Assembly (NCBI GenBank): GCA_009773315.1
Contig: WRPE01000005.1
Location: forward strand, 23,842 to 87,841
Origin: Syntrophaceae bacterium
GTDB taxonomy: Bacteria > Desulfobacterota > Syntrophia > Syntrophales > Smithellaceae
DNA: 64,000 nucleotides
Direction: 5' to 3'
A model generated the notes under the pieces. It was not told the origin of the DNA, made no database searches, and worked only from the letters and a program-made list of their open reading frames with translations. Positions within the stretch are counted from its first letter, which is position 1. The number at the start of each line of letters is the position of its first letter. This document shows, piece after piece, positions 52,602 through 58,008 of this stretch. The position numbers and the translations under genes are program-made.

Positions 52602-52668
52602 GACGGCCTATCTAGCTTTTCGTGCTTGAATTTGCAAGCCGGAATGTACTATATGTATGTTCAACCTT

Positions 52669-52717
52669 GTAGGGGCGAATAACCTAAAAAAGTTACACGG
52701 TAATTATTCGCCCCTAC
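52669..52717. repeat. GTAG-type REP-like palindrome
   Basis: gtaggggcgaataa...ttattcgcccctac. Confidence 0.7.
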
Positions 52718-52737
52718 TCATCATATGGAGAAAACAC

Positions 52738-53814
52738 ATGCATGCAGTCATCATGGCCGGCGGAAGAGGAACAAGATTCTGGCCCAGGAGTCGGGAGAAA
52801 AAACCAAAACACCTGCTGGATATTGTCAGCGACCGGACTATTATTCAAGAGACGGTTGACCGGATCAGAGAGTTGATCAAACCCAAAAATATCCTGATCG
52901 TCACGGGTAAAAAACATGCGCGTGAACTGATGAAACAAATGCCGGAAATCCCCGTGAAAAATATCATCATTGAACCCGTCGGCCGCAATACAGCTGCCTG
53001 CATCGGCCTGGCAGCGCTGCATATTCAAAAGAAAATGAAAGATGATATCATGGTCGTGCTGCCTTCCGATCACGCCATCGGCAACCCTGATAAATATCGA
53101 TCTGTGATCGCCACGGCGGCCCGGGCGGCCGAAAGTGAAGACGCGCTGGTCACCATCGGCATTCAACCCACCGGACCACACACCGGCTTCGGCTATCTCG
53201 AAGGGGGCAAAGCGGTCGGAAGCGTTGGAGGCGATGAAGTGCTGCACGTAAAGTCAATCCGGGAAAAGCCGGATCTTGCCCTAGCCCGCAAATTCGTCAA
53301 AAGCGGTAGATTTTACTGGAACAGCGGCATGTTTGTCTGGAAAGCGTCAACCATTCTGCGGGCAATCGAACAGTATTTACCGGATCTGCATTCAGGCTTG
53401 ATGACGATCAAAGGTTCACTGGGTACAGATTCCGAAGCTAAAACCGTATCCAGGGTTTATCTGCGGCAGAAATCCATCTCCATCGATTATGGCGTGATGG
53501 AAAAGGCTAAAAACGTCTTCGTCATTCCGGCCGAGTTCGGCTGGAGCGATGTGGGCAGTTGGGATGCGCTTTGGGATATCTCGAATAAAGACAATAAGAA
53601 GAACGCGCGAACCGGAAGCGGCATGGTCTTATTTGAAGACACGGAAGGCTCCCTGGTTTACAGTCCGGGCAAACTGGTGGCGTTGGTGGGCATGAAAGAC
53701 GTCATCGTGGTCGAAACGAAGGACGCACTTTTGGTCTGCAAGAGAGGACAATCTCAGAATGTCAAGAAAATCGTGGACGTGCTGGAAGCCCTCGGGCAAA
53801 CTCAGCTTCTCTGA
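52738..53814 (+). CDS. manC: mannose-1-phosphate guanylyltransferase
   Basis: IMAGGRGTRFWPRSR, EPVGRNTA, PSDH, EKP, WNSGMF, SIDYGVME, WSDVGSW. Confidence 0.92.
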   Translation: MHAVIMAGGRGTRFWPRSREKKPKHLLDIVSDRTIIQETVDRIRELIKPKNILIVTGKKHARELMKQMPEIPVKNIIIEPVGRNTAACIGLAALHIQKKMKDDIMVVLPSDHAIGNPDKYRSVIATAARAAESEDALVTIGIQPTGPHTGFGYLEGGKAVGSVGGDEVLHVKSIREKPDLALARKFVKSGRFYWNSGMFVWKASTILRAIEQYLPDLHSGLMTIKGSLGTDSEAKTVSRVYLRQKSISIDYGVMEKAKNVFVIPAEFGWSDVGSWDALWDISNKDNKKNARTGSGMVLFEDTEGSLVYSPGKLVALVGMKDVIVVETKDALLVCKRGQSQNVKKIVDVLEALGQTQLL

Positions 53815-54125
53815 TCTTCACCCGGAAAGACTTTCAGATAAACCGGCTTGCCCTTCACAGCAAAAGTTCCTTCCTGTAACGCTTTAATGATGACGTCAAG
53901 GCTCGTTCGTTCATCATCAAAAGCGATAATCAGAAGGTTCGGCTGTCTGGTTTGATGTTTTCTGACACCATCGATTTTTTTCAGGATAGAACCTATCCTC
54001 TCGCTTGCCCCTCAAGAAAAGCACTCAGGCACGGCCAATTGCACGACGCTTTCCGCCGCTTGGACGCCACTGGCCAAAAACACCAGAGAAATAAACACCA
54101 GGAAGGTACTCGATATTTTTTTCAT
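53802..54125 (-). CDS. predicted secreted selenoprotein with HMA/MerP-like fold (C-F-S-U motif)
   Basis: RBS GGAGAG; MKKISSTFLVFISLVFLASGVQA-AESVVQLAVPECFS[TGA]GASERIGSILKKIDGV...IAFDDERTSLDVIIKALQEGTF; SECIS-like hairpin 12 nt after the TGA. Absent from the ORF track. Confidence 0.8.
53983..53999 (-). promoter_or_regulatory. bacterial SECIS-like hairpin
   Basis: AGGATAG-GTT-CTATCCT; the loop starts with G, 19 nt after the in-frame UGA at 54012-54014. Confidence 0.7.
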
Positions 54126-55576: not shown

Positions 55577-56524
55577 TTAATATACCACATTTTCCTGCTG
55601 CTTTACCCACGTCTTCACGTCTTTTAATAAAGCTTTTCTGAATTCATCCGGCTCCAAAATCACGATATGCGGAATCCAGGACTTGAGGATGTCGCGGATA
55701 GACTCGTAGTTGCCTACTCGGAAGATGACGACAAGTGATCCATCAGGCTTGACTTCCCTGATCTCCTGAGTCGGGTACATCTTCCGCCGTCGAAAATAAT
55801 CACTGACGGCTCTGCCCACGAGAACGACAACTTCCAGATTACTCTCCTCTTCAAACCAGATATTAGCGCTTGACCGTAGTGCAGCATCAAGATTTTCCGG
55901 GAAAGCTTTGAAGCCCGCCTTTAATGATCTCAAATCACCGATCTTGTCCATGGCATAGCGCTTGTGTTTCCCGGAATCCGGCTCATTGCCGATGAGATAC
56001 CAGAAGCCGCTGAAGTAAACAACGCGGTAAGGCTCAAGATTGACGGAATGTGCGCCTTGCTTTGCAGCATACTGGAAGCTGACCTGTCTTTTCTCCCTGA
56101 TGGCCTTCACAATCCGGTTCAGCAGGGCACTGTCCAAGTGGACAGCATCATTAATCTTTACGAAAACCGGCATATTGGTGACACAGTCATACAGACTGTT
56201 CAGGACAGAATCGGCAGCATTCTGGAAAGGTTGCCCCAACTGCCCGACAATGTTCTTCAAGGCTACCACCAGGGCCAGCTCCGTGTCGTCAAAGACCTCA
56301 AGGTTCTTTACCAGGTCTTTACTCAACAGATAGTTGCCTTTCTGAATTTCATAGATAGGAAAACCGGATTCTTTAAGCAGCAAGAGATCACGCTGGATAG
56401 TCCGTGGGGTAGTCTGGAAGTATTCACTTAGCCAAGTGCTGGAGACCTTCTCCTTTTCCATGAAGATCCGAAGAATTTGTCCCAGACGGATCAGTTTTGT
56501 CTGCGCGTTGCGGTCACGGGTCAT
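55577..56524 (-). CDS. HTH-WYL-WCX transcriptional regulator
   Basis: RTIQRDL HTH, LEPYRVVYFSGFWYLIG, WIPHIVILEP. Confidence 0.92.
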   Translation of the reverse strand: MTRDRNAQTKLIRLGQILRIFMEKEKVSSTWLSEYFQTTPRTIQRDLLLLKESGFPIYEIQKGNYLLSKDLVKNLEVFDDTELALVVALKNIVGQLGQPFQNAADSVLNSLYDCVTNMPVFVKINDAVHLDSALLNRIVKAIREKRQVSFQYAAKQGAHSVNLEPYRVVYFSGFWYLIGNEPDSGKHKRYAMDKIGDLRSLKAGFKAFPENLDAALRSSANIWFEEESNLEVVVLVGRAVSDYFRRRKMYPTQEIREVKPDGSLVVIFRVGNYESIRDILKSWIPHIVILEPDEFRKALLKDVKTWVKQQENVVY

Positions 56525-56544: not shown

Positions 56545-56680
56545 AAGAAATAATATTATTCTGACAATAATAATGCGACGTACGGTTGTCGTTGTGACAT
56601 TGAACTATCAGAGATTATCGATTATGGTCAACTTAAAAAAGAAGAATTATTGACAAATCGTTAGTGAAATTTTATAGATA
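56545..56680. promoter_or_regulatory. divergent promoter region with candidate WYL operator
   Basis: aataatattatt palindrome (56549-56560), CGAC-N8-GTCG (56576-56591), TTGACA-N17-TATAGA on + (56650-56678). Confidence 0.45.
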
Positions 56681-56766
56681 AAAGCCACTTGCCAAACACC
56701 AGACGAAACATTGAGTTTAAGTTTGCCAGAAAGCAGTTAATCGGCAGAAACAAATTGGAGTCGCGC

Positions 56767-57030
56767 ATGAGTAAACTCATATTTATTTGGAATATCGATC
56801 ATAATAAAAAAGTGAAAATCAAGGAAATCAGAGAATATAATATTGTCAGAGAAAGCAGCGATGAAAAATCTGAATATTGCGTTGACGCTTTTGGATTTTT
56901 CCATGGTGCCGTCCGTGTATTCAAAGGAAGCAAGATGGATTGCATTGACTTCGTAGATTCTCTTACGGAAAGAACCGGAAACAAGCAGGAAGAGATGAAT
57001 GAAAACTGTTTAGAAAAAAGGGGTGAATAA
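56767..57030 (+). CDS. small hypothetical protein
   Basis: ATG after GGAG; first gene of the operon, stop 1 nt before the next start. Confidence 0.55.
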   Translation: MSKLIFIWNIDHNKKVKIKEIREYNIVRESSDEKSEYCVDAFGFFHGAVRVFKGSKMDCIDFVDSLTERTGNKQEEMNENCLEKRGE

Positions 57031-57031
57031 T

Positions 57032-57697
57032 ATGGCAAACGCAACAGATAATCTTGAACAAGCAGAGAAAATAGTTAATGGGATTGTATATGGACACATT
57101 GAAAAAGACCGTGCGTTAAATATATGTCGTTGGCTCATGTCTTTTAACTCACAAGAAAAAGGCTTCAGCGTCAAATGCTACCAAACAAATGTCCCAGACA
57201 TCAGGTTTTGTGTTGACAGAGGAAGCGACTGTGAAGGAAAAAAAATTCGAACCGTTTTTGTAACAATAAGATCAAATCTTCAAATATTATTTCATACAAA
57301 AAACACTGATTTCACATACCTTAAACAAGATCAAAATGATATTTATTATATAATTCCTGAAGCTGGCAAAAAACTTGATATGGCAAGAATAAAATTTCAT
57401 ATTCTTGAAGCATATTGCCAAAAGATTGACCAGCTTAAATTAAATTCCTCTATGTGCATTGGAACCAAAATCACCGAGACTATTGAAACAAATGACACTG
57501 CTATTAACTATTATACTTTTCAGAAAGAAGATTTTGAAAAAGCATACCGAACGATCGCCAAAAAAAACCAGAGTGTTTTCATAGATGCCGTTCTAGATCA
57601 GCTCGAACTTGGCGCGAAAACATTGGGGCATAAGCTGAAAAATAACTGGAGACTTGAAACTGAAAGAAACATCGCAATCTGGTCGAAGATGAAATGA
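57032..57697 (+). CDS. hypothetical protein A: alpha/beta N-domain (weakly DUF5655/YjbR-like) plus shared C-terminal domain
   Basis: C-terminal ~60 aa align without gaps to that of 58009-58572 (14 of 58 identical, W-x3-T-x2-N-x3-WS). Confidence 0.75.
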   Translation: MANATDNLEQAEKIVNGIVYGHIEKDRALNICRWLMSFNSQEKGFSVKCYQTNVPDIRFCVDRGSDCEGKKIRTVFVTIRSNLQILFHTKNTDFTYLKQDQNDIYYIIPEAGKKLDMARIKFHILEAYCQKIDQLKLNSSMCIGTKITETIETNDTAINYYTFQKEDFEKAYRTIAKKNQSVFIDAVLDQLELGAKTLGHKLKNNWRLETERNIAIWSKMK

Positions 57698-57749
57698 TTC
57701 TCATCATCATTTTCCGGTGAGATGCAGTAATAAATCGAAAGAAATTGAT

Positions 57750-57914
57750 ATGAATTATAAATTTGATGAATATTATAAAACGTGGGATAAACATGGTGTT
57801 AAATTAACCTCCCGGATTGAAATAACAAAAGATCATTTGGATCAAGTGACCGAGAAACCTGATGTTTGTGACGTTCTCCCTTTTATTGCTGAGTGCCCTG
57901 GAAAATGGCAGTAA
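57750..57914 (+). CDS. short hypothetical ORF or gene fragment
   Basis: 54 codons inside the operon; no recognised motif. Confidence 0.3.
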   Translation: MNYKFDEYYKTWDKHGVKLTSRIEITKDHLDQVTEKPDVCDVLPFIAECPGKWQ

Positions 57915-58008
57915 GTAAGGAGTGATAGCCGTAGTGACAGAAAAACATGAATAAACTAAGAAGAGAGGGCATTTTTAGATAAATTAATTTCTAAAGGGGG
58001 GCCATAAT

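Follow-up and report, generated by a model that had tools for sequence, protein, structure and literature searches.

A minus-strand gene in a 64,000-nucleotide stretch of a Syntrophaceae bacterium genome (contig WRPE01000005.1; the whole stretch is hereafter the window) is, on comparative sequence evidence, very probably a true selenoprotein gene overlooked by gene callers, and the in-frame TGA at its codon 38 is almost certainly read as selenocysteine (Sec, U). Comparison of homologues brings out the gene, its predicted recoded UGA, a selenocysteine insertion sequence (SECIS) element, the predicted fold and their conservation. The product is likely an exported selenoprotein of approximately 84 mature residues with a MerP-like HMA fold, synthesized by the route proposed below, and the gene founds, or belongs to, an undescribed family of MerP-like CxxU proteins that is centred on Syntrophales and occurs mainly in Smithella-like syntrophs.

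The conservation of the TGA was assessed by searching 41 genomes with the read-through protein: that of the window, 24 more from its genus and one from each of 16 other families of the order. A homologue was detected in 34 of the 41 (33 genomes besides the window's own), and every one of them, including the most divergent at 28% identity with the window's protein, has an in-frame TGA in the same alignment column, followed by a frame that stays open for at least 60 codons. The motif is CxxU in 31 homologues, CxU in two (L052 and L053) and YxxU in one (L051); accordingly, the first motif column holds Cys in 33 of 34 and Tyr in L051. The same search returned no homologue in G001, G013, G030, G035 and G037-G039, which are 88-100% complete, and a match on contig C24 of G015 (E-value 0.006; a 517-residue frame with no stop) was set aside as an unrelated HMA-containing protein. 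Among 23 same-genus orthologues, pairwise differences at codon positions 1, 2 and 3 are 0.265, 0.19 and 0.50 over the 60 codons after the TGA, next to 0.168, 0.10 and 0.507 over the 12 codons before it; to judge from this pattern, the region past the TGA evolves as coding sequence under purifying selection.

Two wider samples agree with this picture. A scan of named species genomes, with the 60 residues after the Sec codon aligned from the 23 same-genus orthologues as the query, yielded 46 loci, of which 42, titled Smithella, Smithellaceae, Syntrophaceae, Syntrophales or 'delta proteobacterium', were kept; the remaining four (L097-L100; Myxococcota, Xanthomonadaceae, an archaeon and Bacillaceae) were dropped from the count as partial matches with E-values of 9e-5 to 7e-4. 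The 42 Syntrophales loci, which share species with the 34 homologues and hence are not a set independent of them, have TGA at the Sec column in 38 cases, TGA one codon earlier in one (L096, CxU) and Cys in three. Furthermore, an even draw of 300 further genomes of the phylum gave 12 matches at E<=1e-10, in 7 of 9 genomes of the same order and in 5 of 291 from other orders. The TGA is present in 11 of these 12 (the motif was checked by eye in 5 of the 12 and by computed stop count in the others), and the twelfth, in G218, has Cys in a CRPC motif. Three assemblies contain two copies of the family on different contigs (L058/L080, both Sec; L083/L093, Sec and Cys; L091/L095, both Cys), which may be true paralogues or may reflect mixed bins.

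The gene is laid out as follows:

54125-53802, minus strand: predicted selenoprotein gene; translation with TGA as U gives 107 residues, Sec38 among them, before the terminal TGA
54134-54131, minus strand: ribosome-binding site GGAG, 5 nucleotides (nt) ahead of the ATG, read from the sequence
54125-54123, minus strand: start codon ATG, read from the sequence
54125-54057, minus strand: predicted Sec-type signal peptide, residues 1-23, with a KK n-region, a hydrophobic core and cleavage between VQA and AE
54056-53805, minus strand: predicted mature HMA/MerP-like domain, residues 24-107, with a beta-alpha-beta-beta-alpha-beta fold (AlphaFold2, Foldseek and PDB profile search)
54023-54021, minus strand: Cys35 codon TGC, the first residue of CxxU, followed by Phe and Ser, read from the sequence
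54014-54012, minus strand: in-frame TGA, codon 38, predicted to be read as Sec (TGA in 34 of 34 homologues; Sec machinery in the genome)
53999-53983, minus strand: candidate SECIS hairpin, 12 nt after the UGA (5' arm 53999-53993, loop 53992-53990, 3' arm 53989-53983)
53804-53802, minus strand: terminal TGA stop, after 69 sense codons beyond the first TGA

An initial annotation, made from the letters of the window, had described a ribosome-binding site, a signal peptide and a Cys-Phe-Ser-TGA motif, and all are present on the minus strand, the signal peptide as judged by eye and from conservation among the 34 homologues. Up to the first TGA the frame reads MKKISSTFLVFISLVFLASGVQA and then, past the predicted cleavage point, AESVVQLAVPECFS; the predicted signal peptide is the first of these segments and is followed by AE, and an A-x-A before AE or AQ is an N-terminal architecture common to the 34 homologues. 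The 69 open codons past the TGA that had been reported are recovered on translation with TGA as U. The window's gene contains a single in-frame TGA, and the terminal stop of the orthologues is TAA or TAG, located at or before the stop of the window's gene.

The hairpin that follows the UGA consists of AGGAUAG, a GUU loop and CUAUCCU, and its 7 base pairs (bp), G-first loop and 12-nt distance from the UGA are as first described; moreover, it is conserved with covariation. We aligned 57 nt around the TGA from 32 homologues, leaving out L052 and L053 because the register of these CxU forms differs by one codon. In this alignment, RNAalifold predicts a stem of 6 bp (AGGAUA/UAUCCU) capped by a 5-nt loop, and the six core positions are paired in 32 of 32 homologues (192 of 192 cells); the seventh pair of the window's hairpin (G-C) is kept in only 23. 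Compensatory two-sided changes are found in four of the six core pairs (G-C to A-U, A-U to G-C, U-A to C-G, and A-U to C-G or G-C), and the second base of the 5-nt loop (column 29) is G throughout the 32 sequences. None of 500 column shuffles reaches the observed covariation score, and sliding the partners by 1-3 columns reduces pairing from 96% to 36-48%. In the CxU forms L052, L096 and L120 the hairpin lies 15 nt after the UGA instead of 12, with the codon register kept; that of L053, also CxU, is weaker, with 4 contiguous pairs only. The stem overlaps the codons for R-I-G-x-I-L, and the third positions of the stem codons AGG, AUA, NCU and AUC (+5, +6, +8 and +9) have zero entropy among the 23 same-genus orthologues, compared with about 1-1.7 bits at most other codons, which indicates a constraint at the RNA level on top of that on the protein. 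The distance from the UGA and the early G in the loop agree with the SECIS criteria reportedly set out by Zhang and Gladyshev in 2005. Insertion of Sec by SelB with a putative SECIS element 12 nt past the UGA is strongly supported.

The genome (2.98 Mb in 86 contigs, 100% complete by marker genes) encodes the machinery that such insertion would require. As the initial annotation had proposed to verify, selA (604 bits, cut-off 268), selB (363 bits, cut-off 242), selD (371 bits, cut-off 125) and tRNA-Sec (71.7 bits, cut-off 47) all score over their curated cut-offs, and ARAGORN calls the last of these as tRNA-SeC with anticodon tca. The selD gene (contig C50:7440-8366, locus L010) holds one in-frame TGA itself, which makes selenophosphate synthetase a selenoprotein here. 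A second match to the tRNA-Sec model (contig C16:64274-64365, L014) scores 48.6 bits against a gathering score of 47 and may be a long-arm tRNA, such as that for Ser or Leu, or a second Sec-like tRNA.

With respect to protein databases, it had been anticipated that gene callers would miss this gene, and a word search of 5.8 billion protein clusters indeed returned only two proteins, one of 84 residues that has W in place of the TGA and one of 77 residues that ends at the TGA. A profile search of 1.84 billion representatives gave 1765 matches at E<=1e-3 and 97 at E<=1e-10. The motif was inspected in 25 of the 150 matches listed from this search: 10 have W at the Sec column, 7 have CxxC (P0005, P0009, P0012, P0014, P0018, P0021 and P0030), 4 have CxC (P0019, P0022, P0039 and P0041) and 4 have one Cys or none at the motif. 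W occupies the Sec column in the public metagenome proteins P0002, P0004, P0006-P0008, P0011, P0013, P0015-P0017 and P0025, where, we infer, it probably marks a TGA translated by callers that use a code in which TGA is Trp. Such translation hides selenoproteins as seemingly ordinary proteins, and standard gene calling truncates or drops the gene; the family appears to be absent from protein databases except for W-containing or truncated forms. Cys is found at the Sec column in L091 and L093 (both TGT), L095 and L114. With Cys and TGA/W forms at one column, the family displays the classical Sec/Cys alternation.

Other readings of the TGA fare poorly against these observations. The initial annotation had itself raised a simple pseudogene, in which the TGA would be a nonsense mutation in a gene that once encoded a CxxC HMA protein, with a 37-residue peptide at most as its product. 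Translation by standard table 11 does stop at codon 38, and a TGA-truncated form (P0003) is present in protein databases; this reading is nonetheless very improbable, being contradicted by a TGA kept at one column in all homologues down to the most divergent, with Cys there in other homologues, by a downstream frame open under purifying selection, by the covarying hairpin and by the Sec machinery in the genome. We consider it just as remote that the TGA is read as Trp, Cys or Gly without selenium, through a variant code or near-cognate suppression. The W at this column in P0002, P0004, P0006-P0008, P0013 and P0016 would fit such readthrough, but TGA is an ordinary stop elsewhere in the same genome (e.g., that of manC at 53812-53814 and the selenoprotein gene's own end), open reading frames (ORFs) across the window are normal under table 11, and the tRNA with anticodon tca has the structure of a tRNA-Sec. 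Moreover, simple reassignment of TGA would leave a hairpin conserved at SECIS distance without a function, and a W here would abolish the CxxC-equivalent motif retained in the Cys homologues.

As for the structure, the protein was initially described as HMA-type, and its predicted fold is indeed HMA/MerP-like by AlphaFold2, Foldseek and a profile search of PDB sequences. The AlphaFold2 model, built from the 34-sequence alignment, has a mean predicted local distance difference test score (pLDDT) of 83.4, with 10-residue blocks over residues 31-100 averaging 90-96; the signal segment is modelled with low confidence (pLDDT 53-58) and lies apart from the domain. The predicted secondary structure (E25-31, H40-49, E54-60, E64-70, H76-85, E91-97) places C35 and U38 within loop residues 32-39, between strand 1 and helix 1. 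The best PDB match in Foldseek is oxidised MerP (1osd; target-normalised TM-score 0.82, root-mean-square deviation 2.0, 72 columns, 26% identity), followed by CopZ, Atx1 and the HMA domains of P-type ATPases; nearly all top matches are HMA domains with probability 1.00, and a few non-HMA ferredoxin-like folds rank lower. The profile search points the same way, with the N-terminal domain of CopA (1p6t) at 9.8e-12 and MerP (1osd) at 7.2e-10. The initial claim that the TGA falls exactly at the second Cys of the HMA CxxC stands for the Cys members of the family itself, with whose Cys the TGA aligns; with respect to MerP, a gapless alignment puts the family's CxxU in the same loop but two residues N-terminal of GMTCxxC, so that the TGA is not demonstrably at the second Cys of the canonical motif. 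The Gly-Met-Thr of GMTCxxC is replaced in the family by Pro-Gly (Pro-Glu in the window's protein). Among 17 relatives, scores against the MerP model TIGR02052 range from 21.8 to 61.9 bits, and these relatives fall below every NCBIfam cut-off, with the models NF041115 and NF045683 for HMA-type selenoproteins being no exception.

The initial annotation had left a metal-binding and a redox role side by side; the selenoprotein reading it proposed is supported, as neither of the outcomes it had named as refuting (a genome devoid of Sec machinery, or close homologues that all lack a conserved TGA) was observed, and both roles persist as alternatives. Export, the bound metal and any partner protein are what we infer in the following model. 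A ribosome would arrive at UGA38, where SelB carrying Sec-tRNA(Sec) would bind the hairpin 12 nt downstream and insert Sec, and translation would then run for 69 codons to the true stop. The signal peptide would direct the protein across the inner membrane via the Sec translocon, and the product would carry a Cys35-x-x-Sec38 pair in the loop that joins strand 1 to helix 1. In the periplasm, the thiolate and selenolate may bind a thiophilic metal, e.g., Hg(II), Cu(I), Cd(II) or Zn(II), which we regard as the likeliest function, with middling confidence. The metal-bound protein could act as a scavenger, buffer or hand-off protein, and in an anaerobic habitat where sulfide is abundant and metals are limiting, the selenolate might hold the ion more tightly than two thiols would.

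Several observations weigh against this interpretation, some of them against metal binding and some against its premises. The presence of Sec in the protein is predicted from comparative evidence, and the hairpin of the window, taken by itself, is no stabler than shuffled sequences (76-nt fold, z 0.43; 130 of 200 shuffles fold at least as well), so that its significance comes from the comparison of homologues only. No Pfam model matches the window's protein, that for HMA (PF00403) giving no match at E<=1; at E<=0.1 the latter matches only 9 of the 34 homologues (best 6.3e-10), and the best NCBIfam match of the window's protein, MerP (TIGR02052; E-value 6e-8), scores 33.1 bits against an equivalog cut-off of 92.55. 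In gapless alignment to MerP and CopA, the CxxU of the family lies two residues N-terminal of GMTCxxC, and because of this offset the geometry of a metal site may differ. The variation among CxxU, CxU and YxxU fits the role of a reactive selenol as well as it fits a two-ligand metal site. The gene has manC, maf, a yggS-like gene, an RNA methyltransferase gene and a rhomboid gene as neighbours, with no metal-handling partner nearby; in the 100% complete genome, MerT has 0 matches at E<=0.01 and MerA no match over its cut-off (best 341 bits, cut-off 454). Finally, the sister-clade homologue L052 sits in a redox-type context, between a flavoprotein disulfide reductase, of the dihydrolipoyl-dehydrogenase-like kind, and a peroxiredoxin (AhpC/TSA) fragment.

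This context is among the evidence for the alternative in which Cys-x-x-Sec is a redox centre and not a metal site: the pair would close to a selenenylsulfide, and the protein would act in the periplasm on disulfides, peroxides or polysulfides by reduction or isomerisation. The CxU and CxC variants recall strained redox motifs, the YxxU homologue L051 lacks the Cys and a lone Sec cannot make a two-ligand site, and L121 and L122 are near a thioredoxin. Against such a role, nearly all top structural and sequence matches are metal-binding HMA domains, and HMA-fold proteins are not known to include an oxidoreductase. In the divergent CxU clade, the neighbors are a flavoprotein disulfide reductase plus a peroxiredoxin fragment, thioredoxin 2, or a ChaN-like protein; these, the redox-type ones included, are isolated cases that decide nothing, whereas homologues of the main clade are flanked by housekeeping genes in at least 8 of the order's families. 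A recent compilation holds that most uncharacterised CxxU/UxxC selenoproteins are probably redox proteins (PMC13188914, section 7), a generalization that counts against metal binding. On balance, we regard the redox alternative as the main rival but rather unlikely, and the remaining probability falls to some other function. Returning to the L052 locus (genome G031), the AhpC/TSA fragment at L052:2048-2359, just downstream of the CxU homologue, covers model positions 52-123 only and may be a peroxiredoxin selenoprotein cut at its own TGA; the dihydrolipoyl-dehydrogenase-like flavoprotein gene lies directly upstream of that homologue.

Among characterized proteins, MerP offers the closest parallel to the proposed metal-binding protein: the two have in common a small size, a signal peptide for (here predicted) export, the beta-alpha-beta-beta-alpha-beta HMA fold (PDB 1osd and 1afi for MerP) and a VPG...(I/V)TFDD.KTS pattern in the HMMER alignment, and the window's protein would likewise place a pair of chalcogen ligands in the loop joining strand 1 and helix 1. 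They differ in that Sec would take the place of the second ligand, in the family motif VPGCxxU, which is without the Met-Thr of GMTCxxC and carries the two-residue shift of the gapless alignment, and in that the selenoprotein gene stands outside any mer operon, between manC and maf. CopZ and Atx1 (PF00403) share the fold and the loop in which the putative ligand pair sits, but CopZ is cytoplasmic and has CxxC. The family of NF041115, named 'putative mercuric reductase' in Table 1 of PMC13188914, also comprises small HMA-related selenoproteins with Sec in the metal-binding motif, and it gives weak matches (E-value 0.066 for the window's protein, down to 7e-8 for relatives); it has two Sec residues in UxxU instead of CxxU, and the window's protein scores 13.4 bits against its cut-off of 95. 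Like that family, the UxxC cation ATPase and the MerT/CopZ fusion NF045683, with Sec in an HMA-type metal loop, set a precedent for selenolate ligands. These, however, are fusions or transporters of the membrane, and in the ATPase Sec comes first in the motif, whereas the window's protein is a free-standing, predicted secreted domain with Sec at the second position; NF045683 matches relatives weakly and does not match the window's protein at E<=1.

The family does not seem to have been described. Table 1 of PMC13188914, which in 2026 enumerated 119 prokaryotic selenoprotein families and subfamilies, includes MerT (C/SxxU), the cation ATPase (UxxC) and the UxxU metal-binding protein, and among its 119 entries there is no secreted MerP-like CxxU protein. 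A 'MerP' selenoprotein is on record from the Global Ocean Sampling survey (Table 2 and Dataset S1 of PMC2398784) as two identical reads of 33 residues bearing a T-U-C motif; it was rejected as a member of the family, to which it bears no resemblance as judged by eye. The portions consulted of PMC12013277, PMC9312934, PMC1794560, PMC1976440 and the preprint 10.1101/2022.07.06.499078 contain nothing matching the family, and a full-text search of the literature outside subscription journals likewise found nothing matching it. The family would add a secreted, MerP-like CxxU member to the few selenoproteins with Sec in a metal-binding fold.

The gene neighborhood is conserved. On its 5' side the selenoprotein gene faces the divergent maf and yggS-like genes, and on its 3' side it converges with manC (52657-53814), the 3' ends of the two overlapping by 13 nt (53802-53814). 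The arrangement manC, selenoprotein gene, maf, yggS-like gene is found again in the genus and in eight further families of the order, which suggests that the gene has long resided on the chromosome and does not belong to a mobile resistance operon; its retention at a single chromosomal position in at least nine Syntrophales families favors a housekeeping role over a mobile resistance function. Elsewhere in the genome, an ordinary CopZ and CopA pair is encoded on contig C28, and NF045683 has only sub-cut-off matches, to ordinary CopZ and CopA genes.

HgcA is present at full length in the window's own genome (contig C4:8801-9787, L124; 462 bits, cut-off 275) and over the cut-off in 24 of the 41 related genomes, which makes these syntrophs putative mercury methylators. 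Within the 16 genomes from other families, 6 encode both HgcA and the selenoprotein, 5 the selenoprotein only, 1 HgcA only and 4 neither. Thus, the selenoprotein occurs in 6 of 7 genomes with HgcA but also in 5 of 9 without it, and the link to HgcA is not specific. Conceivably, the protein is a core periplasmic Cys-Sec metal receptor that occurs throughout the order in hgcA-bearing syntrophs, captures Hg(II) or another very thiophilic trace metal from sulfide-bound pools and feeds the uptake for mercury methylation; we put this forward as a speculation that we consider very unlikely. If it were true, the supply of selenium would exert a hidden control over the uptake of metals, and perhaps over how much methylmercury forms, in wetlands and peat.

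These bacteria are key syntrophic partners where hydrocarbons and fatty acids are degraded under methanogenic conditions. A periplasmic metal or redox protein that depends on selenium could therefore matter for how trace metals are acquired, or mercury is handled, in anoxic habitats. In bioinformatic terms, the family is a solid rather than a surprising addition.

RNA reads and regulatory signals at the locus add a few minor observations. Four wetland or peat metatranscriptome runs contain 0.04-0.10 of the sampled words of the locus. The matching contigs are 85-99% alike, mostly over 53951-54000 (the hairpin and what follows), and come from relatives, as they then run on into unlike sequence; none bridges the TGA with at least 31 letters on both sides. 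An RNA library may hold DNA, and these matches are therefore not evidence of expression of this gene. A scan of the locus for promoters and terminators detected no promoter-like site on the minus strand and no terminator, including no terminator-like hairpin between manC and the selenoprotein gene. Farther along the window, the region from about 56600 to 58000 contains only short or unannotated ORFs; it lies beyond a gene for an HTH-WYL-WCX regulator (55577-56524, minus strand) that adjoins the yggS-like gene.

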